Shown here one piece after another: positions 1 through 12,880 of a stretch of 13,852 nucleotides of DNA (positions within the stretch are counted from its first letter, which is position 1; the number at the start of each line of letters is the position of its first letter). The DNA is taken from contig JBKPAK010000047.1 of NCBI GenBank assembly GCA_046726415.1, positions 1 to 13,852 on the forward strand, given 5' to 3'. Position numbers and translations under genes: made by a program. The DNA comes from Candidatus Methylomirabilota bacterium (GTDB lineage: Bacteria; Methylomirabilota; Methylomirabilia; Rokubacteriales; CSP1-6). The notes under the pieces were generated by a model. The model was not told the origin of the DNA. It worked only from the letters and a program-made list of their open reading frames with translations, and ran no database searches.

Positions 1-582
1 ACCCGGCAGGACAAGACCTCGGACTACGTGGGGCGCGTGGTGGCCGTCTCCGGCCTGTCCTTGCCCGACTTCTGGCTGGGCACCCTGGTCATCACCTTTG
101 CCGCCATCTGGTTCCACTGGATTCCTCCGCTGGGCTACGCCAGCCTCTGGGATTCGCCGCTGAAGAACCTCCAGCAGTTCCTGCTGCCGGCGGCGGTGCT
201 CGGCTTTCGCCTCTCCGCGGCCACCATGCGGATGACCCGCTCCACCGTGCTCGAGGTGCTGCGCGAGGACTACGTGCGCACGGCCTGGGCCAAGGGGCTG
301 GCCGGGCGGATCGTCGTGTACAAGCACGCACTCAAGAACGCGCTCATCCCCGTCGTCACCATCGTCGGCGGTCAGCTGGGGACCTTGCTGGCTGGTACCG
401 TGATCGTGGAGACGATCTTCGCCCTGCCCGGCATGGGCCGATTGACCGTCGAGGCCATCCTGTTCCGCGACTACCCTGTCGTCCAGACGAACGTCATGCT
501 GGTGGCGGCAGTGCTGGTCACCCTCAATCTCATCGTGGACCTCACGTACGCGTGGCTCGACCCGCGGATTCGCTATCAGTGA
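1..582 (+). CDS. Peptide/nickel ABC transporter permease (DppB/OppB family), 5'-truncated by window edge
   Basis: Frame 1 is open from base 1 (TRQDKTSDYVGRVVAVSGLSLPDFWLG...). It has the EAA-loop region 'DYVRTAWAKGL' and the motifs 'HALKNALIPVVT', 'IVETIFALPGMG', 'RDYPVVQ' and terminal 'LDPRIRY', all typical of DppB. Confidence 0.93.
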   Translation, partial: TRQDKTSDYVGRVVAVSGLSLPDFWLGTLVITFAAIWFHWIPPLGYASLWDSPLKNLQQFLLPAAVLGFRLSAATMRMTRSTVLEVLREDYVRTAWAKGLAGRIVVYKHALKNALIPVVTIVGGQLGTLLAGTVIVETIFALPGMGRLTVEAILFRDYPVVQTNVMLVAAVLVTLNLIVDLTYAWLDPRIRYQ

Positions 583-595
583 GGGGCGGGCGGCC

Positions 596-1498
596 ATGTC
601 CACGGTGACGGCCCCCGTTCTGGCGCTGGAGGAGCGACCGGCGGATACCCTCAGCCGAGGCCGCGCCCTGTGGATCACCATCAAACGCAAGCCGCTAGGC
701 GCCGCCTCCGCTTCCGTCATCGCATTGCTCGTGCTCACGGCGATCTTCGCCGATGTCCTCGCTCCCTACGATCCGCTCGCCGCTCAGCCGGAAGTGCGAC
801 TGGCGTCGCCCAGCCGGGCGCATCCTTTCGGCACCGACGACATCGGACGCGACGTCCTCAGTCGCGTCATCTACGGCGCCCGGATCTCGCTGTGGGTGGG
901 CCTGCTGGCGGTGGGGATCGGGACGGTGGCCGGCATGATCATCGGCCTCGCCTGTGGCTACTGGGAGGGGCGCCTCGACCTCGTGCTCCAGCGCCTCATG
1001 GACGCGGTTCAGGCCATCCCCGGGCTCGTGCTCGCGCTGGCCATCGTGTCGGTGCTGCGCCCGAATACGACCAACGCGATGCTGGCCATCGCGATGGTGA
1101 TCATCCCGGGCAACTCGCGCATCGTGCGCGGGGCGGTGTTGTCGGCCAAGCAGAACCGGTATGTCGAAGCGGCCCAGGCTCTCGGCTGCCAGCAGCCGCG
1201 GATCGTGGCCAGCCACATCCTGCCCAACGTGACCGCGCCGATCCTGATCATCGCGTCGATCTGGCTGGGCAATGCCATCCTCATCGAAGCGTCGTTGAGC
1301 TTCCTGGGCCTGGGTACCCAGCCGCCTACGCCGTCCTGGGGCCTGATGCTCAGCAGCACTGGACGCGCCTACATGGAGCAGGCCCCCTGGCTCGCGATCT
1401 TCCCGGGGCTGGCCATCAGCCTAGCCGTGCTGGGGTTCAACCTCTTCGGCGACACCCTCCGAGACGCCTGGGACCCCAAGCTCCGCCGTCAGGGCTAG
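596..1498 (+). CDS. Peptide/nickel ABC transporter permease (DppC/OppC family)
   Basis: Motifs 'HPFGTDDIGRDVLSRVIYGARISL', 'YVEAAQALG', 'HILPNV', 'EASLSFLGLG...PPTPSWG' and 'FNLFGDTLRDAWDP'. Lies 13 nt after the upstream permease with a GAGGGG RBS-like sequence. Confidence 0.95.
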   Translation: MSTVTAPVLALEERPADTLSRGRALWITIKRKPLGAASASVIALLVLTAIFADVLAPYDPLAAQPEVRLASPSRAHPFGTDDIGRDVLSRVIYGARISLWVGLLAVGIGTVAGMIIGLACGYWEGRLDLVLQRLMDAVQAIPGLVLALAIVSVLRPNTTNAMLAIAMVIIPGNSRIVRGAVLSAKQNRYVEAAQALGCQQPRIVASHILPNVTAPILIIASIWLGNAILIEASLSFLGLGTQPPTPSWGLMLSSTGRAYMEQAPWLAIFPGLAISLAVLGFNLFGDTLRDAWDPKLRRQG

Positions 1499-1735
1499 CT
1501 CGCGGCCATCCATCGCATTCGCTTCAGTCATTCACATCGGGGCCGCGCGCCCGTTCGCCCAGGCGAATGGCGCATCCGCGGCCACGTCGTAGGCGACGGC
1601 AACCGAGTCGGTGGCGCGCGATCCGAGGTGCGCCGGTCGCGAGCGTGGTGATGGCGGCCGGGCTCATGATAGGGGCGGCGCGCGCGGTCACAAGGATCGG
1701 CCCTCGGGATCGATCGCGCTCGCCTTCGCTTGGCG

Positions 1736-2740
1736 TCAGCGGAGGCGGAGGAGGCGGCGCGCGTTGCCCTCGTAGATCGCCGCCTTCTCCGCGTCGCTGG
1801 CGCGCATGCGGTCCATGGCGGCGATGGTGTCGCGGATGAAGCCGGGGCCGTGCTCGGGATCGAATGGCATGTCGGTGCCGAACAGGATGTGGTCGGCGCC
1901 GAAGAAGGCCAGGCCGCTCTCCATGGCGTGCCAGGCGCCGAAGAGCGCGGTGTCGCCGTAGAACATCTTGAAGTAGTCGATGGGACGCCGGCGCAGCCGG
2001 CCGAGCGCGGCGGCGTCCTCTGCGTCATCAGACCGCATGCCCAGCTGATCCAGACCGCCGCCGACACGGCCGGCGCAGAACGGGACCATGGCCCCCATGT
2101 GGTGGGTGATCACCACGAGGGCGGGGTAGCGGTCGAAGAGACCCGAGAAGACGAGGCGGCCCATGGCCAGCGTCGTGTCATACGGCCAGCCGAACGCCCA
2201 CCATAGGTCGTACTTCGACCGCGGCTCGCCGGCATAGTCGGCCAGGGCGGGCCGCGCGGGATGCAGCCAGAGCGGCAGCCGGCGCTCGGCCAGCCGCGCG
2301 AAGAGCGGCTGGAACTCCGGCGCGTCGAGGGGCCGCCCCGCCACGTTGCTGAACATCTGCACCCCGGTGGCGCCCAGGGCGTCGAGCGCTCGATCGATCT
2401 CGCCGAGAGCGGCCTCGGGATTGTTCATGGGCAGCGAGGCGACGAAGGCCGGAAAGCGGTCGGGGTGTCGCTCCACGATCTCGGCCATGCAGTCGTTGGC
2501 CAGGCGCGCGAGATCAGGGCTGGCGTCGGGTCCGCCCACCACCTCGATCGGCGGGTTGGCCAAGGTGAGGACCTGGCGATAGTCCTCGTAGCGATCCATG
2601 ATCCGGAACCGCTCCTCGAGATCCACCAGCACCGGAATGCCCGACATTCGCTTCTGCAGGGCCATGCCTCGGGGCGCCACGTCGAGCATGCGCTCGAAGT
2701 AGCGGCGCGGCAGGATGTGCGGAAAGACGTCGATCTTCAC
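1736..2740 (-). CDS. Amidohydrolase_2 family protein (ACMSD/LigW-like TIM-barrel decarboxylase/hydratase superfamily)
   Basis: GTG start with AGAAGGG upstream. Motifs 'KIDVFPH', 'LARLAND', 'PDRF', 'PLWLHP', 'ITHHMG', 'ILFGTDMPF' and 'IYEGNARRLL'. Confidence 0.9.
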   Translation of the reverse strand: MKIDVFPHILPRRYFERMLDVAPRGMALQKRMSGIPVLVDLEERFRIMDRYEDYRQVLTLANPPIEVVGGPDASPDLARLANDCMAEIVERHPDRFPAFVASLPMNNPEAALGEIDRALDALGATGVQMFSNVAGRPLDAPEFQPLFARLAERRLPLWLHPARPALADYAGEPRSKYDLWWAFGWPYDTTLAMGRLVFSGLFDRYPALVVITHHMGAMVPFCAGRVGGGLDQLGMRSDDAEDAAALGRLRRRPIDYFKMFYGDTALFGAWHAMESGLAFFGADHILFGTDMPFDPEHGPGFIRDTIAAMDRMRASDAEKAAIYEGNARRLLRLR

Positions 2741-2773
2741 GGGCGCGCCCTTCTGGGCCGTCTCGTCGGCCCG

Positions 2774-3285
2774 CTACCGGCCGCCGGTGACCGGCAGCGT
2801 GACGCCGGTAATGTAGCTGGCCTCGGCCGACGCCAGGAACAGCACGGCGTCGGCGATCTCGTTCGGCTGGCCCAGGCGGCGCAGCGGCGTCATGTGGTTC
2901 GGGCTATATTCCACCGTCTCGTTCAGGGTGCGGAGCATGGCCCCCGCCCGTTCGGTGTCGATGGGGCCGGGCGCCACCGCATTGACGTTGATGCCGTACT
3001 CGGCGAGCTCCAGGGCCACGTCGCGGATGAACCCGTGAATGCCGGCTTTGGCCGCCGAGTAGGCGGAACCACCCTGGTAATAGGCGGTCCACGGTGTGCC
3101 TTCGCGCGCGCCGGAGGAGAGGCAGATGATGCGGCCGGAGCGCTGTCGGACCATGTGAGGCACGGCTGCCCGCGTACAGAGGAAAGCAGACCGCAGATTC
3201 AAGCGCAGCACGAAATCCCAGTCCTCGACCTTCATGTCCCAGATCCGCCGGTCACCACGGCCACCTGATCCTGTACGCGGCCCAT
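2774..3285 (-). pseudogene. SDR (FabG-like) oxidoreductase disrupted by an internal frameshifting deletion
   Basis: ATG at 3285 with GAGGAG RBS gives MGRVQDQVAVVTGGSGT* (SDR beta1 and start of the TGxxxGxG loop; stop at 3232-3234). A different frame carries the C-terminal half (IWDMKVEDWDFVLRLNL...GRIICLSS...YSAAK...INVNAVAPGPIDT...ASYITG, stop 2774-2776). The intervening Rossmann segment, including NNAG, is absent. Confidence 0.85.
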
Positions 3286-6200
3286 CAGCCCTCCTCGACC
3301 GACTGGCTTTGCCGACCGGCATCATAGCAAGGGGGGCCCGCCGCGGCCGCGCGCGCGATGCCGACCGCGGCCAGGCCGCCCTCCAGCTCCACGGTATGAA
3401 CGACAATGCCGCTCGGCGGCGGACCAATGGCCAGCTCGACCGCCAGCGTCTCCGCGCAGAGGTACTCGGAGTGCTCTTCGATCGCTGATTGCCGCTCGGG
3501 GTCCGACGAGACATACACCCGGATGCGATCGTCCACGTTGAGCCCTGTGCCCTTCCGAAGGCGTTGGATCTGGTGGGCGAGCTGTCTCGACAGTCCCTTG
3601 CGCCTCAGGGCGGGCGTGAGGTGCGTATCGACGGCGACGATGAGATCGCCCTCGAGGACCGCCCTGAACGGCCCCGCATCGACCGCCAGCGCGATCGAGG
3701 TCCTCCCCGGTGGCGTCCAGAGCGCGCGTCCGTCGGCCCGGAGCGCATCGGCGACGGCGCGCTCGATCGGCTCGACGTCGACCGCCTCGGCGTTCAGCTC
3801 CTCGCGAAGATCGGCCTCGAACTCGCGCAGCCAGAACACCTGACCAGGTGGCCCGAGGACGAGAACCCTGGCCACTGGCTGGCGCACCCTCAAGCCCGCC
3901 GCGTTCCGCACTGCCAGCCCCACGGTGAGCGCCCGCCGCACGAAGGCCACGCCGGCCTCGAGCTCCTGAGGCGTGTAAGAGGGCGACGTCGGAGCCATCC
4001 AGGCTACCCGCGCCGCCGACTCCGCCTCCGACCCGGGGAAGTCGGTCAAATGCACGCTGCGGGCCGCCCCGGCACTGCGCTCCCCGAGCAGCCCCTGATA
4101 GATGTGCTCGGCCACGAACGGGGTGACCGGGGCCAGGAGTTGACAGATCCGCACCAGAACGTGGAAGAGCGTCTGGTAGGCCACCGTCTTGTGCTCGGTC
4201 ATTTCGCCCTTCCAGAACAGGCGGCGCCGGCGACGGACATACCAGTTCGAGACGTCATCCTGGATGAAATCCTCGAGGGCGCGCACCGCCCGGCGAAGCT
4301 GATAGCCGTCGAGCGCGGCGCGAACCTCGCGGATCGTCGACTCGAGGCGGGCGAGAATCCAGGCTTCCAGCCCGAGCGGTACTTCGGGCGCCGCCGCATC
4401 CGACGGCAACGCCGGCTGGTCCATGTTGGCATACGTGACGAACAGCGTGTAGATGTTCCACAGGGTGAGGAACCGGCGCGTGACGTCCCGCGCCGCCGCA
4501 GAGCCGAACGCGATCGGCTCGGCGACCGCGTGTGATGCGAAAAGGTAGCGGACCACATCGGGTCCCACGCGATCGAGGGCCTCGTCGAGCCAGACCGCGT
4601 TGCCCCAGCTCTTGTGCATCTCGCGGCCGTCCTCTCCCAGCACGCGATCGTGGGCCATGACCGTGCGATAGGGCGCGCGGCCTTCCAGGGTTACCGCCAT
4701 GAAGAGCAACGCGTAGAACCACCCGCGGACCTGCGCCGCCATCTCCACCACGAAGTCGGCCGGAAACCACTGGGCCCAGCGCGACCGGTCGTCGAGATAG
4801 CCCAGGGTCGAGAAGGGGACGATACCCGCGTCGAGCCAACAGTCACCGACCTCGGGCACGCGGGGCACCTCCGAGCCGCACCCCGGGCACTTCAACGTCA
4901 CCTCGTCGATCCAGGGGCGATGCAGCTCGGGGAGAGCCGTGGCGACCGCGGGGTCGATGGCGAGTCGCCGCAATTCGTCGGGCGAACCCACCACCGTGAG
5001 TCGGCCGCACGTCGTGCATGGGTAGAAGGGCAGGGGGAGTCCCCACACGCGCTTGCGCGAGATGCACCAGTCGCCCATGTTGGTGAGCCAGTCCTTCATG
5101 CGCAGGCCCATGTGCTCGGGGTGCCAGCTCACCCCGGCGTTGGCGCGGAGCGCGCGCGGCCGAAGCTCGTCGGCCCGGATGAACCACTCGTCGACTAGAC
5201 GGAAGATCAGCTGGTGACCACAGCGCCAGCATGACGGGTAGCGGTGGCGGTGCGTCGCCTCGTGGTACAGTCGGCCCTCGGTGCGCAGCCTCCTCACCAC
5301 GTCGGCCGTCGCCTCGAACACGCTGCGATGTTCCATCTCGCCAAACCCCGGCCCATAACGACCTTCCTCGTCGATGGCCGCCACGATGGGCAGCCCGTAT
5401 CGCTGTCCCAGCTCGAAGTCGTTCTGACCGCAGCCGGGCGCGATGTGGACGATGCCGGTCCCTTCGCGGGCCGCCACGTCGTCCCATCCGACCACGCGAT
5501 GCTCGATGGACCGCTGCACCGGGAGATCGCTGAAGGGCGCCACGTAGTGAAGCCCCACGAGGTCCGTTCCCTTCACGCGCTGCTGAACGTCGCCGAGGCC
5601 GGGAAGACTGGGACGGGCCGCCGCCGCCACCCAGTAGCGCCAGTCCCCGCCGGCGACGCTCTCATATGCCGCGTCGGGATGGACGGCCACGGCCACGTTG
5701 GCGGGAAGCGTCCAGGGAGTGGTCGTCCACGCCAGGAGGGCCGTGCGTTCCTGGCCGAGGATCGGGAACGCGACCACCACCGACTGGTGGGTGACGTCGG
5801 CGTAGGACTCCAGCATCTCGTGCTGGGAGATCGAGGTGCCACAGCGGACGCACCACGGCATGACCCGGTGACCGGAGTAGATCCAGCTTCGCCGGTGGCA
5901 CTCCTGGAGGAAGTGCCAGATGTACCCGATGTTGGCATCCGACATGGTGTAGTAGGAGTGGGGCCAGTCCATCCACTGCCCCAGCCGCTTCGACTGCTCG
6001 GTCTGCAGCGCGGCGAAACACAGGACGCGCTCGCGGCAGGCCCGCGCGAACGCCGCGTGCCCCATCGCCTCGATGTCGCGCTTGGAATTGAGCCCGAGCG
6101 CCTTCTCGACCTCGACTTCCACCCACAAGCCCTGGCAGTCGAAGCCGTTCTGGAAGCGCTGCTCGAAGCCGCCCATGGCCTTGTAGCGCTGGACGATGTC

Positions 6201-6392
6201 TTTATAGGTTCGTCCGCGGGCGTGGTGGACTCCCATGGGGTTGTTGGCGGTGATCGGGCCGTCCAGGAAGGAGAAGCGTGGCCCGCCGCGATTCTTGGCC
6301 ACGAGCTGCGCGAAGACGTGTTCGCGCTCCCAGAAGGCTCGCGTTTTGCCGGCCATGGCCACGAAGTCGAGCGGTCCCGGCGTGCTGAACAT
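3285..6392 (-). CDS. ileS: Isoleucine--tRNA ligase, type 2 (IleRS2), with non-canonical GVHH/EMHKS signature motifs
   Basis: 1035 aa. Motifs 'FLDGPITANNPMGVHH', 'GFDCQGLWVE', editing 'WTTTPWTLPAN' and 'GTGIVHIAPGCGQND', 'DWCISRKRVWG', 'RVPEVGDCWLDAG', 'QVRGWFY', 'EMHKSWGN' and 'SNWYVRRRRRLFW'. It has an IleRS2-type C-terminus ('GLSRQLAHQIQRLRK...LNVDDRI...ETLA') and no C-terminal IleRS1 zinc finger. GGGGGA RBS upstream. Confidence 0.96.
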   Translation of the reverse strand: MFSTPGPLDFVAMAGKTRAFWEREHVFAQLVAKNRGGPRFSFLDGPITANNPMGVHHARGRTYKDIVQRYKAMGGFEQRFQNGFDCQGLWVEVEVEKALGLNSKRDIEAMGHAAFARACRERVLCFAALQTEQSKRLGQWMDWPHSYYTMSDANIGYIWHFLQECHRRSWIYSGHRVMPWCVRCGTSISQHEMLESYADVTHQSVVVAFPILGQERTALLAWTTTPWTLPANVAVAVHPDAAYESVAGGDWRYWVAAAARPSLPGLGDVQQRVKGTDLVGLHYVAPFSDLPVQRSIEHRVVGWDDVAAREGTGIVHIAPGCGQNDFELGQRYGLPIVAAIDEEGRYGPGFGEMEHRSVFEATADVVRRLRTEGRLYHEATHRHRYPSCWRCGHQLIFRLVDEWFIRADELRPRALRANAGVSWHPEHMGLRMKDWLTNMGDWCISRKRVWGLPLPFYPCTTCGRLTVVGSPDELRRLAIDPAVATALPELHRPWIDEVTLKCPGCGSEVPRVPEVGDCWLDAGIVPFSTLGYLDDRSRWAQWFPADFVVEMAAQVRGWFYALLFMAVTLEGRAPYRTVMAHDRVLGEDGREMHKSWGNAVWLDEALDRVGPDVVRYLFASHAVAEPIAFGSAAARDVTRRFLTLWNIYTLFVTYANMDQPALPSDAAAPEVPLGLEAWILARLESTIREVRAALDGYQLRRAVRALEDFIQDDVSNWYVRRRRRLFWKGEMTEHKTVAYQTLFHVLVRICQLLAPVTPFVAEHIYQGLLGERSAGAARSVHLTDFPGSEAESAARVAWMAPTSPSYTPQELEAGVAFVRRALTVGLAVRNAAGLRVRQPVARVLVLGPPGQVFWLREFEADLREELNAEAVDVEPIERAVADALRADGRALWTPPGRTSIALAVDAGPFRAVLEGDLIVAVDTHLTPALRRKGLSRQLAHQIQRLRKGTGLNVDDRIRVYVSSDPERQSAIEEHSEYLCAETLAVELAIGPPPSGIVVHTVELEGGLAAVGIARAAAAGPPCYDAGRQSQSVEEG
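3321..3329 (-). promoter_or_regulatory. Putative extended -10 promoter (TGCTATGAT) for the SDR/amidohydrolase genes
   Basis: The minus strand reads TG-C-TATGAT, an AT-rich island about 36 nt upstream of the SDR ATG, inside the last codons of the ileS ORF. Confidence 0.45.
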
Positions 6393-6583
6393 TGGTCTGT
6401 CCCCCGTGTCTGATCTCGTCGAACCCGGGTTCTGGCGCCGGTGACCACGCCCGACCTCACACGAGGTTGGAAACTCAACGGCCGCCAGGAACCCTGACGG
6501 CCGTGTGAAATCGATTGAGTCGATCCGGAACCGTCAGTTCACGGCGTCTCCCGGCCTATGACTGACGGTCTAATTCGACTCAT
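6393..6583 (-). promoter_or_regulatory. Putative leader-peptide attenuator (structured 5' leader of ileS)
   Basis: Minus-strand segments: 1 ACCGTCAGT (6569-6561), 2 ACTGACGGT (6538-6530), 3 ACGGCCGTCAGG (6504-6493), 4 CCTGGCGGCCGT (6489-6478), followed by TGAGTTT. The 1:2, 2:3 and 3:4 pairings are mutually exclusive. Confidence 0.7.
6539..6583 (-). CDS. Putative leaderless leader peptide MSRIRPSVIGRETP (14 aa)
   Basis: ATG AGT CGA ATT AGA CCG TCA GTC ATA GGC CGG GAG ACG CCG TGA. The ATG lies 6 nt after a TACTAT -10 box with no SD sequence. Two Ile codons flank helix segment 1, and the stop abuts segment 2. Confidence 0.65.
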   Translation of the reverse strand: MSRIRPSVIGRETP

Positions 6584-6589
6584 GGCGCG

Positions 6590-6618
6590 ATAGTAGCGCA
6601 CGCCGCCCCTCGGCACAA
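6590..6618 (-). promoter_or_regulatory. Putative sigma70-type promoter for the ileS leader
   Basis: TTGTGC (6618-6613), a 17-nt spacer, then TACTAT (6595-6590). The predicted +1 coincides with the A of the uORF ATG (6583). Confidence 0.65.
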
Positions 6619-6770
6619 GCAACACCTCGCTCGGCCATCGCGGCCGCCCGTCGCGGAGCGGCTTGACGAAGACCGCCCTGGCGATGCCCTCGACGGGCCC
6701 AGGTCTTTAGCGGCACTCTAGACGAGCGCAACGCGCGCGATGAGGTGAGGGCAGAATCCGAGGGGTGTTC

Positions 6771-9146
6771 ATGACCGTGATCCTGCTGCTCTACGCGGCG
6801 ACCTTGTTCGTGGGGGCCACCTTGCTGTTCGCGGTTCAGCCAATGGTCGGCAAGATGATCCTGCCCCTCCTCGGCGGCACCCCGGCCGTGTGGAGCACCT
6901 GCATGGTGTTCTTCCAGGCCGCGCTGCTGGGCGGCTACGCCTACGCCCATGCCACCACGGCCTGGCTGGGCGCCTCCCGGCAGGCGATCCTGCACCTCGC
7001 GATGCTGGCGGTGCCGCTGGGCGTATTGCCGCTCGTCGTGAACCCCGCCCTTCTGCGCGGCGGGGAGTCCAACCCGGTCCTGGATGTGCTCATCGTCCTC
7101 TCGGTGTCGGTGGGCCTGCCCTTCCTCGTGGTCAGCGCCACCAACCCGATGCTCCAGAGGTGGTTCACCCATACCGGCCACCCGGCCGCACGCGACCCCT
7201 ACTTCCTCTACGCGGCGAGCAACCTCGGGAGCATGCTGGCTCTACTCGGCTATCCCACCCTCATCGAGCCGCGACTGCACGTCAGGAGCTATGGCTGGTT
7301 GTCGCAGGCGCAGCTCTGGAGCCTGGGCTATATCGTGTTGGCCGTCCTGATCGTGCTGTGCGCGCTGATCCTCTGGCGCAGCCCTCCGGCGGCCGGCGCG
7401 GCGGTCCTCGAGGTGACGGCCTTGCCCTCGTCGCCCGGCGGAGGGCCGGTCAGCGCGGACGGTTCGAGCGCGTGGCCGCGGCGGGATGGCGCGCGCAGCG
7501 ATGCCCTCTCGGTGGGCCGCCGTCTGCGCTGGGTGGTCCTGGCCTTCGTGCCGTCGAGCCTCCTCCTCGGCGCGACGACATTCATCACGACCGACATCGC
7601 CGCCGTCCCTCTGCTATGGGTGCTCCCGCTCGCCATCTATCTCCTGAGCTTCATTGTCGCCTTCGGCCACTGGCCGGCCCGCTTCCATCGGATGGTGGTG
7701 GCGGTCATGCGGCCCCTGGTCCTCGTGGTGATCTTCCTCATGGTCTCTGGCTTCCGCCAGCGCATGTGGGTGACCGTGCTGTGGCACTTCTTGGCCCTTC
7801 TGGTGGTCGCGCTCGCCTGCCACGGAGAGCTGGCCCTCGATCGCCCGTCGCCCCGTCGCCTCACCGAGTTCTATCTGCTGATTTCGGTGGGGGGGGTGCT
7901 GGGCGGGTTCTTTAACGCCCTCGTGGCCCCGGCCATCTTCAGCGCACTCGTGGAGTACCCGCTAGCCATGGCGGCCGCGTGCGTCCTATCGAGCCGTCGC
8001 CGTCTGGCCCGCGACACGACGGGCCGCGCCCTGCTCCTGGACGTGGCGCTCCCCTTCGGGGTGATCGCGCTGGCGCTCGTCCTCTACTCCAAGTCCATCG
8101 CCGTTCGCGTCGACTTGGCCTCTCTCACCCGCGTGCTCGGCATCCCATCCGAGTGGGCCACGAAATGGCTGACGCCGGTCGAGGGGCCGCTGAGCGCGAT
8201 CCTCGTGTTCGGTCCGCCGCTGGTGGCCGCGTTCTTCCTGAGGCACCGGCCGGCCGCGCTGGCCCTCGCCCTGGTGGGCGTGCTGGTGGTGGCCGAGTTC
8301 GTCAATGCCCGGAACGGCGACCGAATCCATCAGGCGCGGAGCTTCTTCGGCGTCCTGGAAGTCACCCGCGACCGCGATAAGGAGGGCTATACCGAGTTGC
8401 GCCACGGCACGACCCTGCACGGCCGTCAGAGTCGCGATCCCAAGCGCCAGGGCGAGCCGCTCTCCTACTACCACCGTGCGGGGCCCGTCGGACAGATCTT
8501 CGCCGAGCTGGATCGACGGGACGGCGCCCGCCGCGTGGCGGTGATCGGGCTCGGCACCGGAACCCTGGCCGCCTACGCGCGGCTCGGTGACGCCATGACC
8601 TTCTATGAGATCGACCGACTCGTTCGGGACATTGCCTCCGACCGCACGTACTTCACGTACTTCGCCGACGCGCGCGATCGAGGGGCGACCTTGCGGGTGG
8701 AGCTGGGGGATGCCCGCGTCCGCCTGGAGGCCGTGAAACGAGACCGGCCGGGAGAGCGGTATGACGTGATCGTCGTCGATGCGTTCACTTCGGACGCTAT
8801 CCCCGTGCATCTGCTCACGCGGGAAGCCCTGCGACTCTATCTCGAGATGCTGGCGCCGGACGGGCTGCTCGCGCTCCACCTCTCCAACCGCTACCTCGAT
8901 CTCGAGCCGGTGGTGGCGAACCTCGCCGAGGACGCCGGCCTCCGTGGGCGGCTGCTCCAGCACGACGAGTCCGCGGAAACAGAGGGCGCCTCCGCATCGA
9001 CGTGGGCCGTGCTGGCCAGGACGCCCCAGGCGTTGGGAAACCTCGCCCGCGACCACCGCTGGACCACCGCGAAGCTCGAGAGCAACCCCCGGGTAAGCGC
9101 GTGGACTGACGACTTTCACAACCTGCTGTCCGTCTTCAAATGGTGA
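6771..9146 (+). CDS. Fused multi-TM membrane domain / spermidine synthase-like SAM-dependent transferase
   Basis: N-terminal hydrophobic helices ('LLFAVQPMVGKMILPLLGGTPAVWSTCMVFFQ', 'DPYFLYAASNLGS'). C-terminal class I SAM-fold motifs 'VAVIGLGTGTLA', 'FYEID', 'GDAR', 'YDVIVVDAFTSDAIPVHLLT' and 'WTDDFHNL'. GAGGGG RBS before ATG 6771; an alternative GTG lies at 6765. Confidence 0.9.
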   Translation: MTVILLLYAATLFVGATLLFAVQPMVGKMILPLLGGTPAVWSTCMVFFQAALLGGYAYAHATTAWLGASRQAILHLAMLAVPLGVLPLVVNPALLRGGESNPVLDVLIVLSVSVGLPFLVVSATNPMLQRWFTHTGHPAARDPYFLYAASNLGSMLALLGYPTLIEPRLHVRSYGWLSQAQLWSLGYIVLAVLIVLCALILWRSPPAAGAAVLEVTALPSSPGGGPVSADGSSAWPRRDGARSDALSVGRRLRWVVLAFVPSSLLLGATTFITTDIAAVPLLWVLPLAIYLLSFIVAFGHWPARFHRMVVAVMRPLVLVVIFLMVSGFRQRMWVTVLWHFLALLVVALACHGELALDRPSPRRLTEFYLLISVGGVLGGFFNALVAPAIFSALVEYPLAMAAACVLSSRRRLARDTTGRALLLDVALPFGVIALALVLYSKSIAVRVDLASLTRVLGIPSEWATKWLTPVEGPLSAILVFGPPLVAAFFLRHRPAALALALVGVLVVAEFVNARNGDRIHQARSFFGVLEVTRDRDKEGYTELRHGTTLHGRQSRDPKRQGEPLSYYHRAGPVGQIFAELDRRDGARRVAVIGLGTGTLAAYARLGDAMTFYEIDRLVRDIASDRTYFTYFADARDRGATLRVELGDARVRLEAVKRDRPGERYDVIVVDAFTSDAIPVHLLTREALRLYLEMLAPDGLLALHLSNRYLDLEPVVANLAEDAGLRGRLLQHDESAETEGASASTWAVLARTPQALGNLARDHRWTTAKLESNPRVSAWTDDFHNLLSVFKW

Positions 9147-9156
9147 CCACCGATGT

Positions 9157-10068
9157 TCAGCGTTGGAGCACCCGCAACCGCGGGTCGAGCGCGTCGCGGA
9201 GGCCATCGCCGAGAAGGTTCAGACTCAGGCTGGCCACGGTGAGGGCGAGACCCGGAAAGAGACACACCCAGAAAGCCTCGCGGATGACGTTCTTGCCACT
9301 GGCGATGACGTTCCCCCATGACGGCACGTACGGGGGAACGCCCACCCCGAGGAAGCCCAGGATCGCCTCGGCCAGCACGGCGTACGCGAAGATGAACGTC
9401 CCCTGGACCAGCAGGGGCGCCATGCAGTTCGGCAGAATGTGGCGGACGGCAATGCCGAGGTCGGGTCGGCCTAGGGCCCGGGCCGCCTGCACATAGTCGA
9501 GCTCCCGCACGCTCAGGACGGTGCTCCGGATCAGCAACGCCGTCCGCGGGGTGTAGACGATGGACAGGGCGAAGATCACGTTCCAGACGCCGGGACCGCG
9601 CGCCGCCATGAACGCGATGGCGAGGATGATCGCCGGAAAGGCCATGAGGCCATCGGTGACGCGCATGACGAGGAGGTCGAGCCGCCGGTAGTATCCGGCC
9701 ACGAGACCGATCACCACGCCGCCGAAGGACGTGAGCACCATGGTGATGCCACCAACCAGCAGCGACACCCGGCTGCCGAAGAGAACCAAGCTGTAGACAT
9801 CGCGGCCAAACTCGTCGGTGCCGAAGTAGTTCGCGGCGCTTGGCGGCTTGAGGCGGCTGGCCGGATTGAGTCGCGTCGGGCTGTGAGTCGCGGCCACCGG
9901 TGCGAGGATGGCGGCGAGCAGGAAGAGCACGAAGATCGCGCCACCTCCGAGGACGTTTCGATTCCTGAGCAGGCGGCCGAGCCACCGCGTCCGGACCTGC
10001 TCCGGCGCCCCCACCCCGAGCGCGGTCGCGACGGCCGCGGCCGACCGGGTCGATGCCGCCTCAGTCAT
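9157..10068 (-). CDS. Peptide/nickel ABC transporter permease (DppC/OppC family)
   Basis: Motifs 'YFGTDEFGRDVYS', 'YVQAARALG', 'RHILPNC', 'LGFLGVGVPPYVPSWG' and 'LNLLGDGLRDALDPR'. Overlaps the upstream permease by 8 nt. Confidence 0.95.
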   Translation of the reverse strand: MTEAASTRSAAAVATALGVGAPEQVRTRWLGRLLRNRNVLGGGAIFVLFLLAAILAPVAATHSPTRLNPASRLKPPSAANYFGTDEFGRDVYSLVLFGSRVSLLVGGITMVLTSFGGVVIGLVAGYYRRLDLLVMRVTDGLMAFPAIILAIAFMAARGPGVWNVIFALSIVYTPRTALLIRSTVLSVRELDYVQAARALGRPDLGIAVRHILPNCMAPLLVQGTFIFAYAVLAEAILGFLGVGVPPYVPSWGNVIASGKNVIREAFWVCLFPGLALTVASLSLNLLGDGLRDALDPRLRVLQR

Positions 10069-11005
10069 AGCGGATCCTCGGATCGATGAGGACGTAGACC
10101 ATGTCCACGGCGAGGTTGATGAGCACGTAAGCCGCGGCGGTCACCAGGACCACGCCCTGGACCACAGGGTAGTCGCGCCGCAGGATCGCCGAGATGACGA
10201 GTCGCCCGAGCCCCGGAATGTTGAACACGATTTCGGTCACCACCGCGCCGCCGATGAGGATCGCCATCGTGATGCCGATCACCGTGACCACCGGCACCAG
10301 CGCGTTCCGGAACGCGTGGCCGTACACGACGGCGCGCTCGCGCAGCCCCTTGGCGCGGGCCGTCCGGATGTAGTCCTGCTGGAGGACTTCCAGCATGCAC
10401 GAGCGCGCGATCCGCGCGATGAGGGCCGACTGGTTGAAGCCGAGAGAGAGCGCCGGCAGCACCATGAAGCGGAGGGCCGCGGCGGGATCGACGAACACCG
10501 ACGCGTAGCCCGCCGCCGGCAGCCAGCCCAGGCGCACCGCGAAGAGGTAGATGAAGTTGAGGCTCAGCCAGAAGCCGGGGATGCACACGCCGAGCAGCGC
10601 TCCCATCATGAGCGTTCGGTCCCACAGGGAGCCGGGCTTGGCGCCGGCCACGATTCCGGATGGCACCCCGATGGCGACGGCGACCAGGAGGGCCGACAGG
10701 GTCAAGAGCAACGTCGGCTCGGCACGGTCCCGGAGCACTTGAGTGACGGGACGGTCGAGAAAGTAGGAGCGCCCGAGGTCACCCTGGAGCACGCGTCCGT
10801 AGAACCTCAGGAGCTGCTCGTGGAGCGGTCTATCGAGCCCAAGCTGTCGCCGGGTCGCCTCGATCTGGGCCGTGGTGGCGTCCGGGCCGAGCATGGCGCT
10901 CGCGGGGTCGCCCGGGATGAGATGGATCAGGAAGAACACGACGGTGACGACCACCGCCATCACTGGGAGCACGGCGAGGATCCGACGGACGAAATAGGTC
11001 GTCAT
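10061..11005 (-). CDS. Peptide/nickel ABC transporter permease (DppB/OppB family)
   Basis: Motifs 'HLIPGDPA', 'LGLDRPL', 'GDLGRSY', 'DYIRTARAKGL', 'HAFRNAL', 'RRDYPVVQG' and 'IDPRIRYD'. Confidence 0.95.
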   Translation of the reverse strand: MTTYFVRRILAVLPVMAVVVTVVFFLIHLIPGDPASAMLGPDATTAQIEATRRQLGLDRPLHEQLLRFYGRVLQGDLGRSYFLDRPVTQVLRDRAEPTLLLTLSALLVAVAIGVPSGIVAGAKPGSLWDRTLMMGALLGVCIPGFWLSLNFIYLFAVRLGWLPAAGYASVFVDPAAALRFMVLPALSLGFNQSALIARIARSCMLEVLQQDYIRTARAKGLRERAVVYGHAFRNALVPVVTVIGITMAILIGGAVVTEIVFNIPGLGRLVISAILRRDYPVVQGVVLVTAAAYVLINLAVDMVYVLIDPRIRYD

Positions 11006-11144
11006 GTGAGATGGAGGCCCCGATCAGGCCCTCCGAGTTCCGCGGCGCTCGTCAGCCCGGCCACGCCGGAGCACTCCTGGATTCCCAGGCCTCGTGCCTT
11101 CCTCGAGAAGGTCGCCGTGAGGCCCGGGCGGGCAACCGTGGCGG

Positions 11145-12716
11145 CTACTTCTCGAGCCAGACGCCCCAGAAGCGGGGGCGCTCCACCTTGTCGTTGAACC
11201 CCTTGACGTGCTTGCGCGCGGCCCTGAGCCCAAAGAGGTCGCCGTAGCGCGCCACCGGGACTTTCTCGTAGAAGAGCTTGGTCTGCTGCTCCCACAGCGC
11301 GTAGCGCTTCTTGGGGTCGGTCTCCCGCGCGAGCTGGGCGCCGATGGTCAAGATGTCCTCGTCGGAGGTCCAACCCGGCCAGTTCGGCGTGAGGTAGATG
11401 TGGTGGGTTGGGTCGAAGAAGTTCCCCATCCCGGTGGTGAAGACATCGTATTCCTTGGGCTGAACCCGGCGCTGGCCGAGCGTCGACCAGTCCATCACCT
11501 GAAGATCGATGGTGAAGCCGACGTCCTCGAGCTGTTGCTTGGTGACCAGCGCGAAGTCGTACATCCACTTGTACTCCTGCGTGGTCATGAACCGGATGGG
11601 CTGGCCAGTGTAGCCGGCCTCCTTGAGCAGGCGCTTGGCCTTGTCCTTGTTCCGCTCGTTCCAGGGCAGACCGGCGATCTTGGTGTGCCAGGTGGGCAGT
11701 TCCTGGAAGGCCAGGCTCGAGTCCATGCGGTAGAACTCGGATTTGCCGCCGGCCACGGTCTTCATGATCGGCTCGATGTCGAGCGCCGCCTGCCACGCCT
11801 GGCGGAGCTTCTGGTTCGTCATCAGGCCTTCCTTCTTGTTGAAGACCGCCACGAGCCAATAGTACGGCCTCACGATGATGGGCTGTACGTTGGCGTTGGC
11901 CTTGAGCCGGTCGTAGGCATCGGCCACCAGGTCGTCGGCGAAATCGAGATCGCCCGACTCCACCTGCGCCGCCCGGCTTGCCGCGTCCGGCACCGGGATC
12001 CAGCGGAGCTCGTCCACATAGGCTATCTTGGCGCCGCCGTAGCCACTGCGCGGCTCACTTAGGGGCTTGTAGTCGTCGTAGCGAGCCATGCGGATGTACT
12101 GGTCGGGCTTCCACTCGGTGAGCTTGAACGGTCCCGTCCCGATGAACTCGCTGACGCGCTGGTCGGGCGGAAACTTCTCGGCGACCTCCTTCGGGTAGAT
12201 GGCGCCGAAGTTGTTGGGGACGGCCAGCGAGATCACGACGATGGCCGACTTCTCTTTGAGCTTGAACTGGACGGTGTGCTTGTCGGTCGCCTTGAAGTCG
12301 GCGACCTGCGCAAAGAGCGCCTTGCCGTACACCGAGCGCTGGCTCCAGCGCTTGATCGAGGCGACGACATCGTCCGAGGTCATCTCCTTGCCGTTGTGGA
12401 ACTTGACGCCTTGGCGGAGCTTGATGGTATAGGTGAGGCCATCTGGGCTCACCTGCGGCAAACTCTCGGCCAGCATTGGGGTGGGCCGGTAGCTGGCGTC
12501 GAGGCTGTAGAGGCCTTCGTAGATGTGATTCGTCAGGACCTCGGTGATGGTCTGGGTCCCCCAATGAGGGTCGAGGGAGGGCGGCTCGCCGAGGTTGCCG
12601 ATCTTGAGCACGCCGCCCTTCTTCTGCGCGTAGACGTCGCTCGCCGCGCCGGCCACCGCCAGGGCCACCGCGACCACTCCCGCCACGATTACATACCGGC
12701 CACGCTTGCCGTCCAT
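11145..12716 (-). CDS. ABC transporter substrate-binding protein, family 5 (DppA/OppA-like), Sec signal peptide
   Basis: GGAGG RBS and signal peptide ending 'VYA'. Motifs 'KKGGVLKIG...PPSLDP', 'YTIKLRQGVKFHNGKEMTSDDVVASI', 'IGTGPFKL' and 'KAKRLLKEAGY'. Confidence 0.95.
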   Translation of the reverse strand: MDGKRGRYVIVAGVVAVALAVAGAASDVYAQKKGGVLKIGNLGEPPSLDPHWGTQTITEVLTNHIYEGLYSLDASYRPTPMLAESLPQVSPDGLTYTIKLRQGVKFHNGKEMTSDDVVASIKRWSQRSVYGKALFAQVADFKATDKHTVQFKLKEKSAIVVISLAVPNNFGAIYPKEVAEKFPPDQRVSEFIGTGPFKLTEWKPDQYIRMARYDDYKPLSEPRSGYGGAKIAYVDELRWIPVPDAASRAAQVESGDLDFADDLVADAYDRLKANANVQPIIVRPYYWLVAVFNKKEGLMTNQKLRQAWQAALDIEPIMKTVAGGKSEFYRMDSSLAFQELPTWHTKIAGLPWNERNKDKAKRLLKEAGYTGQPIRFMTTQEYKWMYDFALVTKQQLEDVGFTIDLQVMDWSTLGQRRVQPKEYDVFTTGMGNFFDPTHHIYLTPNWPGWTSDEDILTIGAQLARETDPKKRYALWEQQTKLFYEKVPVARYGDLFGLRAARKHVKGFNDKVERPRFWGVWLEK

Positions 12717-12880
12717 GGTGATCCTCCGTCGCTCACGTCATCGAGAGAAGCGCTCGGCGTCTGGTCGGCCTCGATGCCGCGGCGCGCGGGCGCGGGCCCC
12801 CATGGTCAGGCAGCGCTCCACGACCGTCAAGCGGATTCACGCGGCGCGAACCCCCCGGGGTGGGCCGGCGGGCGCGGTCT

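Follow-up and report, generated by a model that had tools for sequence, protein, structure and literature searches.

A putative leader-peptide attenuator upstream of an accessory type 2 isoleucyl-tRNA synthetase gene in Methylomirabilota

Could a bacterium hold a second, drug-resistant isoleucyl-tRNA synthetase in reserve and switch it on through a ribosome that reads isoleucine codons in a short leader? This question is raised by the gene ileS2 (3285..6392, minus strand), which encodes a type 2 isoleucyl-tRNA synthetase (IleRS2) of 1035 aa, and by the leader in front of it. Both lie on a contig of a Candidatus Methylomirabilota bacterium. The stretch of DNA that was analysed, hereafter called the window, is this entire contig (C47; 13,852 nucleotides, 13.9 kb), which belongs to a 7.6-Mb assembly (G000) with 352 contigs, rated 98% complete with 4.66% estimated contamination. 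The initial annotation had proposed that leader and gene form an inducible back-up module that responds to inhibition of the housekeeping enzyme. Judged from the sequence of the window and its relatives, the most likely mechanism appears to be transcription attenuation by a ribosome that senses Ile-tRNA, acting on an accessory IleRS2 that is probably resistant to inhibitors, and we assign it a probability of about 0.6.

The leader and its alternative helices

The whole leader covers positions 6583-6469, 5′ of ileS2; it and all features described in this section are on the minus strand. It begins with an upstream open reading frame (uORF; 6539..6583), which sits between the ileS2 ATG at 6392 and a divergent gene at 6765. 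The uORF consists of 14 codons followed by TGA (MSRIRPSVIGRETP; ATG at 6583, TGA at 6541-6539) and contains two isoleucine codons, ATT (6574-6572) and ATA (6559-6557), which correspond to AUU at leader nt 10-12 and AUA at leader nt 25-27. Four segments of the leader RNA can be arranged into alternative helices. Region 1 (GACCGUCAGU; leader nt 14-23, 6561..6570) extends from the last base of codon 5 to codon 8 and thus lies between the two isoleucine codons. Region 2 (ACUGACGGUU; leader nt 46-55, 6529..6538) follows directly 3′ of the uORF stop and can pair either with region 1 or, as an antiterminator, with region 3. Region 3 ((AC)GGCCGUCAGG; leader nt 80-91) and region 4 (CCUGGCGGCC(GU); leader nt 95-106) are the 5′ and 3′ arms of a predicted terminator, and the latter is followed by a U-rich tail. 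The terminator hairpin 3:4 (6478..6504) has a GC-rich stem of 12 bp (ACGGCCGUCAGG / CCUGGCGGCCGU) closed by a GUU loop, and the tail UGAGUUUCC (6469..6477) lies 3′ of this stem. Calculated energies in the window are -22.4 kcal/mol for 1:2, -18.5 kcal/mol for 2:3 and -22.6 kcal/mol for 3:4. As predicted from the sequence, these helices are mutually exclusive, with regions 2 and 3 each claimed by two of them.

Among the 80 closest IleRS2 loci of public genomes, seven, all retrieved by their protein, carry the leader (L037-L042 and L048), and a leader homologue is recognisable in genome G005. When metagenome contigs were scanned for the terminator pattern, 120 loci were obtained, made up of 31 with the leader, 87 unrelated hairpins and 2 that were too short to judge, namely L197 and L213, which show the same hairpin with < 25 nt of upstream sequence. 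After removal of one duplicate, 38 distinct leaders were aligned, 30 of which had been retrieved with regions 3 and 4 as bait. The next ORF starts with the IleRS2 N-terminus (MFxxPGPLDF...) in 34 of 39 leader loci, and for the other five < 100 nt are available downstream. The window's own genome contains a single copy of the leader motif. The same stem also belongs to a second kind of hairpin (GGCCGTCAGG-TTGTT-CCTGGCGGCC), which was seen in L116, L118, L128, L133 and others, on many metagenome contigs including gut assemblies, and without the leader motifs. As far as examined, that hairpin is apparently unrelated to ileS2.

The alignment of the 38 leaders was used to assess the helices. Standard pairs occupy 99.8% of cells for 3:4, 99.4% for 2:3 and 86% for 1:2. 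Slid controls, in which the partners were moved by 1-3 columns, gave 23-57% for the structure composed of 1:2 plus 3:4 and 2-61% for 2:3. In helix 1:2, three pairs change on both sides, which was reached by 4 of 500 shuffles. Five of the seven protein-retrieved loci have an identical 29-nt terminator core, and L040 and L041 differ by a one-base loop insertion only. The proteins of these seven loci share only 51-76% identity with that of the window (best tblastn segment). The leader in front of ileS2 has the full anatomy of an attenuator, with a uORF, the alternative helices 1:2, 2:3 and 3:4, and a predicted terminator stem.

The uORF itself is conserved in a characteristic manner. It begins with ATG in 37 leaders and with GTG in one, and its length is 16 codons in 33 leaders and 14 codons in 5. 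Twelve different codons, none of them a stop, are found at codon 2. All 38 leaders have CGA as codon 3 and ATT as codon 4, and codon 9 encodes isoleucine in 27 (ATA in 23, ATC in 4). Isoleucine accounts for 78 of 560 uORF codons (13.9%), compared with 4.3% in 2,725 long ORFs of the genome. In these long ORFs, isoleucine codons are split into 88% ATC, 10% ATT and 1.6% ATA, so that the leader uses two rare isoleucine codons. Hence, the leader with isoleucine codons that had been noted at first is real and conserved, but the description is to be read as a modest enrichment, because the uORF of the window has only two such codons. We conclude that the uORF is probably a short translatable leader ORF with cognate isoleucine codons.

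Upstream of the uORF, a putative promoter (6590..6618) can be proposed from its geometry, with a -35-like TTGTGC (6618-6613), a 17-nt spacer and the -10 element TACTAT (6595-6590). Sufficient upstream DNA is available for 37 leaders, and in these the uORF start follows, at a distance of 6 nt, the end of an extended -10 element (TGnTAnnnT). The base at -1 of the uORF is C in 36 of these 37, and no Shine-Dalgarno (SD) sequence is present before the uORF start in any of them. Since the -10 element ends only 6 nt before the ATG, the uORF is probably leaderless.

Assuming ribosome footprints of the generally known size, a ribosome with AUU or AUA in its A site would cover region 1 and leave region 2 free, and a ribosome positioned at the stop codon would cover region 2. 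The geometry of the leader fits the classical attenuator model.

Several observations weigh against a switch that reads the charging of Ile-tRNA. The number of isoleucine codons per leader ranges from 1 to 4, and 7 of the 38 leaders have a single one. Serine (116 of 560 codons) is more frequent in the leader peptides than isoleucine, and arginine (72 of 560) is close behind it. Strain variants at codon 4 are present among contigs from soil sequencing runs: run X4 has ATG (6572 A>C), and in run X1 one contig out of two has GTT (6574 T>C). Codon 4 is therefore not strictly an isoleucine codon, and ATA at codon 9 is retained in both variants. The octamer CGAAUUAG is invariant at the nucleotide level, for which codon identity alone is an insufficient explanation. 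With respect to the structure, the U-tract of the window (UUGAGUUU) is weaker than the family consensus (UUUCGUUUC), and a scan of 6300-6800 for consensus promoters and terminators found 0 of each. Covariation is confined to helix 1:2, because regions 2 to 4 hardly vary, and the invariance of 3:4 arises in part by construction, because most leaders (30 of 38, as given above) were baited with its two arms. Finally, 3:4 is more stable than 2:3 at equilibrium, so that the switch must be kinetic.

The codon observations could also be explained by an attenuator that senses general translation stress and not isoleucine charging, with ribosome slowing anywhere within codons 1-9, which are rare ones (CGA, AUU, AGA, UCA, AUA), opening the terminator. 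These early codons are indeed rare in the genome, where CGA occurs 8.4, ATT 4.5, AGA 1.6, TCA 2.1 and ATA 0.7 times per thousand codons, and CGA-ATT-AG is invariant at the nucleotide level in all 38 leaders. The strain variants that lack isoleucine at codon 4 and the abundance of serine and arginine in the peptides would fit as well. On the other hand, wherever enough downstream sequence is available, the regulated gene is always that of IleRS2. Isoleucine exceeds the genome background threefold, and it does so at two positions that flank region 1, whereas the rare serine and arginine codons lie in or beside regions 1 and 2, which are constrained by structure. We therefore consider a sensor of general stress unlikely. 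Slow decoding of CGA through inosine wobble was dropped as a candidate, as a gene for tRNA-Arg(UCG) is present. A gene for tRNA-Ile(GAU) was not found in the assembly.

The invariance of the octamer bears on another alternative, in which the uORF is incidental and a factor acting in trans (IleRS, uncharged tRNA or a small molecule) works the switch through CGAAUUAG or the 1:2 hairpin. At the nucleotide level, CGAAUUAG is conserved, as is a GGAG within the loop of 1:2, and no pairing partner was found for either. In addition, the stop arrangement TGAGCTGA closes two of the three frames, so that closure of the ORF is weak evidence of translation. However, the rest of the 1:2 loop varies, as does the spacer, so that there is no aptamer-like core. 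The start codon is kept in 38 of 38 leaders, including the one change from ATG to GTG, and it lies at the predicted +1 position. Moreover, a search against Rfam gave no family match, T-box included, even at E up to 10. A GGGCGUGGUCACCGG string (about 6445-6460) resembles a T-box, but neither RF00230 nor any other Rfam family matched (gathering score, E up to 10) and the string is absent from the relatives; a T-box riboswitch was rejected on these grounds. Control by a trans-acting factor hence seems quite unlikely, and ribosome-mediated attenuation is retained in what follows.

The synthetase and a second ileS gene

The product of ileS2 scores 691.8 bits with TIGR00392 (ileS; cut-off 621.4) and contains the Pfam domains tRNA-synt_1, Anticodon_1 and, at its C-terminus, DUF5915 (residues 911-991). 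Among known structures, those of type 2 match best, namely Priestia megaterium IleRS2 (8c8w, 629 bits) and Thermus IleRS (1ile, 609 bits). Structures of type 1 enzymes (IleRS1) score lower, with 300 bits for 8c9f and 275 bits for 1ffy. The C-terminal region, too, is of type 2 and takes the place of the zinc-finger tail of IleRS1. Against the MupA and MupB models, the product reaches 528.8 and 527.9 bits, far from the NCBIfam exception-level cut-off of 1900 bits, which places it by sequence as a relative of MupA/MupB and no orthologue.

The HIGH motif of the enzyme reads GVHH (residues 54-57) and aligns onto the engineered GVHH of 8c8w and the HVGH of 8c9d. A motif of the form G/AXHH is present in all 72 related loci that cover this position. 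G/AXHH is reported to occur only in IleRS2, where the Ki of mupirocin is up to 10^3-fold higher and extends into the mM range (PMC10485003). Taken together with these data, the GVHH motif suggests a type 2 enzyme of the predicted hyper-resistant subclass, and ileS2 would accordingly encode a mupirocin-resistant protein. The position of KMSKS is occupied by EMHKS (residues 591-595), in which the second lysine is retained according to the structure alignment. EMHKS (window about 4608-4622, minus strand) was counted in 70 of 80 related loci, a number that is biased because EMHKSWGN was among the search patterns. The variant is absent from the main text of PMC10485003.

A back-up role would presuppose a second, housekeeping ileS in the same genome, and the search proposed with the initial annotation found one. 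It lies on contig C313 and encodes an IleRS1-type enzyme of 952 aa with 35% identity to the ileS2 product, the motifs HMGH and KMSKS, a Cys-rich C-terminal tail and a TIGR00392 score of 886 bits. It is followed 3′ by lspA (TIGR00077, 95 bits, cut-off 74) and then by a gene for an RluA-family, RluD-like pseudouridine synthase that remains below the curated cut-offs. The order of ileS1 and lspA is the arrangement of a housekeeping IleRS1. Directly 5′ of the ileS1 start, about 3.5 tandem copies of a 32-nt unit (…GCGTCAAGCGCTGCGCGATCTGACCGCTCACC…) were seen (L002:3960-4095), and five IleRS1 loci gave no Rfam match.

To which of the two types does the lineage ordinarily resort? Of 40 relatives, 37 have an ileS match at E <= 1e-50. 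IleRS2-type matches were found in three only, G005 (66% identity), G035 (40%) and G033 (a fragment of 473 aa). The remaining matches show 32-36% identity, which is the level of the window genome's own IleRS1 (35%). IleRS1 is therefore the ordinary enzyme of the lineage by these comparisons, and IleRS2 is sporadic. The same can be said of the leader, as in one even sample of 151 genomes of the phylum its covariance model R1 matches 4, once each, and IleRS2 is found at E <= 1e-120 in 5.

The leader and the two-copy state occur together. IleRS1 is present in 9 of 9 leader-bearing genomes (G000, G005, G041 (=G106), G042, G043, G044 (=G087), G045, G046 and G159), with 69-75% identity to the IleRS1 of the window genome. 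For three of them (G005, G042 and G043), the match to IleRS1 is distributed over two frames or contigs, probably for reasons of assembly. Conversely, the sole ileS of G035 (94% complete) is IleRS2-type, 40% identical, located directly after the preceding gene and without a leader, although this is one case only. Just 3′ of this leaderless gene, a cobalamin riboswitch was detected (L008:4735-4931, 99.9 bits). In G159, the leader is present and ileS2 is broken into several frames in the assembly. Splitting of ileS1 or ileS2 over several frames was also noted in assemblies with few long contigs (G042:C2, G005:C31, G159:C2, L040, L048), where indel errors or pseudogenes may be the reason.

In a tree of 69 rows (FastTree), from which 14 of 81 loci including L048 were excluded because their longest ORF was < 650 aa or lacked an anchor motif, all 7 leader-bearing IleRS2 proteins fall into one clade with 100% SH-like support. 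This clade also includes L036, a contig without a 5′ end. Long branches lead to the IleRS1 outgroup and to L040. The ileS2 genes of L036 and L041 are nearly identical (tree path 0.015), although their metagenome bins carry the labels of different phyla (Eisenbacteria and Methylomirabilia), and L037 is labelled Limnocylindria with its genome placed in the window's family. Such mismatches probably reflect conflicts of binning or labelling. T-box leaders were detected by Rfam before three of 16 more distant IleRS2 loci, and these three are all Chloroflexota or Thermomicrobiales records.

Insertion and gene neighbourhood

Profile searches of the window genes identified two peptide ABC-transporter gene sets, an Amidohydro_2 gene, a short-chain dehydrogenase fragment, a fused MFS/spermidine-synthase-like gene and a histidine-phosphatase-family gene as neighbours of ileS2, and neither ribF nor lspA was found around it in these searches. 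The accessory setting described in the initial annotation is thus borne out. The gene divergent from the ileS2 promoter (6765-9146, plus strand) encodes a 793-aa membrane protein with a C-terminal spermidine-synthase-like domain (NF037959, fused MFS/spermidine synthase, 45.8 bits).

The dehydrogenase remnant (2774..3253, minus strand) abuts the ileS2 stop. It is truncated at its 5′ end and lacks about 85 N-terminal profile positions, which correspond to the NAD-binding N-terminus. A genome of the same genus (G001) is collinear with window positions 1-3248 at 87-88% identity, and its contig C34 runs past the end of homology (~3250) through the stretch expected for the N-terminal part of the dehydrogenase. 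Positions 6781-9147 and 9167-12875 match two other contigs of G001. ileS2 itself was not found in either same-genus genome (G001, 72% complete; G002, 95%). The ileS2 segment thus appears to interrupt the dehydrogenase gene, which seems to be intact in G001, and the truncated neighbour is the insertion scar at its 3′ junction. Furthermore, the genes that flank the cassette differ in all 7 other genome loci. A foreign composition, which had been suggested as a check, was not seen: ileS2 has a GC3 of 0.87 (62nd percentile of the genome) and a CAI-like index of 0.72 (61st), so that there is no compositional sign of recent import. The insertion is visible from the truncated neighbour.

It has to be considered whether ileS2 lies on a contaminant contig, in which case the two-copy genome would be an artefact and the leader a feedback control of a sole housekeeping gene. 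The number of contigs, the contamination estimate and the fact that the window is a whole contig of 13.9 kb leave some room for this. However, the flanks of the window are 87-90% identical to contigs of the same-genus genome, and its GC content (0.679 compared with 0.675 for the genome), like GC3 and codon usage, is typical. Eight other genomes carry both genes, and four of these (G005, G041, G044, G159) are placed in the window's family by GTDB. In addition, contigs from three soil runs bridge both junctions (2710-4626; 6479-6938 and beyond), which shows that the window contig is no chimera. A contaminant origin is therefore highly improbable. The best-matching of the soil runs may be the source sample of the assembly. 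Contigs of two soil runs have a 1-nt insertion at 3284, just past the ileS2 stop, and 2-nt deletions occur at 2941 (X4 only) and 6732 (X2 and X4). These indels are strain-level variation at the borders of the cassette.

A model of regulation and comparison with known systems

Ribosome-mediated attenuation would treat the cassette as a stand-alone unit composed of the promoter, the leaderless 14-codon uORF, the attenuator and ileS2. Transcription would start at or near the A of the uORF ATG (6583). When Ile-tRNA(Ile) is plentiful, the ribosome would reach the stop codon of the uORF and mask the abutting region 2, so that the 3:4 terminator forms and transcription ends before ileS2. Without translation, 1:2 and 3:4 would both form, again leading to termination. 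If charging of Ile-tRNA(Ile) drops due to isoleucine starvation or to a mupirocin-like inhibition of the housekeeping IleRS1, the ribosome is expected to stall at codon 4 (AUU) or codon 9 (the rare AUA). In either place it would cover region 1, regions 2 and 3 would pair, the terminator would be blocked and ileS2 would be transcribed. The GVHH enzyme could then restore charging, given that this motif confers a millimolar Ki for mupirocin on IleRS2 enzymes in which it was tested. The gene identities, the two ileS copies, the conservation of the uORF and of the alternative helices, the co-occurrence with IleRS1 and the insertion scar are observed in the sequences, and we infer the start of transcription, the stalling of the ribosome, the efficiency of termination, the inducibility of ileS2 and the resistance of its product.

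A second, translational tier of control is possible. Between the terminator and the SD-like GGGGGA (6400..6405, minus strand), which lies 7 nt 5′ of the ileS2 ATG and is kept as GGGGAGG in relatives, a conserved box GGCGCCAGAACCCGGG (6424..6439, minus strand; 'region 5') was noticed, with the consensus GCC(A/G)GAACCCGGG. It is complementary to the apical part and the 3′ half of the terminator, with which it pairs in 87% of cells, and its CCC is complementary to the GGG of the SD. Covariation of the pairing between box and terminator is not above that of shuffles (25-58 of 500), and the RNAalifold consensus contains only a 3-bp CCC:GGG helix between the box and the SD. A more elaborate reading would see here a leaderless two-tier attenuator class, so far undescribed, dedicated to hyper-resistant IleRS2. 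With the invariant pair of rare codons CGA-AUU at codons 3-4 and with AUA, the rarest of all, at codon 9, the first ribosome on the transcript would gauge Ile-tRNA charging very sensitively. The box would have two alternative partners, the 3′ arm of the terminator once this is freed and the ileS2 SD, so that only genuinely antiterminated transcripts are translated. We regard this extended scheme as tentative and hold it with low confidence. If it were true, the cassette would be a self-contained, transferable resistance module that is induced by IleRS inhibitors, and the fact that it has spread among uncultivated bacteria of the soil would speak for chemical warfare waged there with such inhibitors.

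The attenuation model on its own would describe a compact cassette of ~3.5 kb in an uncultivated soil lineage that has been inserted into different genomic contexts. Its leader is short and strongly conserved, and might be put to use as a natural biosensor of Ile-tRNA charging or of IleRS inhibitors, as well as a marker for environmental reservoirs of GXHH-type IleRS2.

The closest known counterpart with respect to physiology is the pair of enzymes of P. megaterium, in which IleRS1 is constitutive and mupirocin induces IleRS2 about 70-fold (Zanki et al., bioRxiv 10.1101/2022.02.09.479832). The idea of an inducible back-up IleRS2 is therefore already known. The leader-peptide mechanism appears to be undescribed for IleRS2: in the literature found by full-text searches of a limited library, no leader-peptide attenuator of ileS is described. 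As in the P. megaterium pair, a housekeeping IleRS1 is accompanied by an accessory IleRS2, and the location of ileS2 is variable (bioRxiv 10.1101/2022.02.09.479832). The P. megaterium IleRS2 is mupirocin-resistant and responds to lost charging of Ile-tRNA, and for the window genome this likeness is suggested by the sequence. The two systems differ in their control elements, since the preprint describes T-boxes before both ileS genes of P. megaterium and a putative CodY site before ileS2, whereas the window has a putative leader-peptide attenuator and no T-box match in Rfam. They also differ in the motif (canonical HVGH in PmIleRS2, GVHH in the window enzyme) and in the lineage, with Bacillota on one side and nearest records labelled Rokubacteria/Methylomirabilota on the other. 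With the hyper-resistant G/AXHH enzymes of Deinococcus radiodurans and Streptomyces griseus described in PMC10485003, the window enzyme shares the swap of HIGH positions 1 and 3 on an IleRS2 scaffold. It apparently differs in reading EMHKS at the KMSKS position, a variant that the main text of that paper leaves unmentioned.

With respect to the mechanism, the leader resembles attenuators of other synthetase genes. The auxiliary, indolmycin-resistant TrpRS1 of Streptomyces coelicolor is reported to be under ribosome-mediated attenuation (Vecchione and Sello 2010). There, too, an auxiliary resistant synthetase is reportedly switched on through a leader peptide with codons for its own amino acid, with Trp codons and TrpRS in that case, and Ile codons and IleRS2 here. 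The leader-peptide attenuators of the E. coli trp and pheST operons are textbook systems, and the window leader shares with them a leader ORF of 14-16 codons, the helices 1:2, 2:3 and 3:4, a predicted intrinsic terminator and a stop codon set for masking of region 2. In contrast to trp and pheST, the regulatory codons in the window are not tandem but consist of two separated rare isoleucine codons that flank region 1, and the uORF lacks an SD and is probably leaderless. For Streptomyces, PMC1262725 predicts classical attenuators in front of trpS and leuS. The same source predicts T-boxes for actinobacterial ileS and names a pheST leader-peptide attenuator.

A leaderless ORF at the 5′ end that serves as an amino-acid sensor through ribosome pausing has a parallel in the mycobacterial polycysteine short ORFs (bioRxiv 10.1101/834739). 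As described there, those ORFs contain runs of Cys codons and gate the SD availability of Cys metabolism genes, whereas in the window a predicted strong intrinsic terminator precedes a synthetase gene. For the task of keeping a fast, drug-sensitive synthetase and switching on a slower, resistant one only when charging fails, two solutions are known: Bacilli use a T-box together with CodY, and in Streptomyces a leader-peptide attenuator controls TrpRS. The leader of ileS2 would represent a third.

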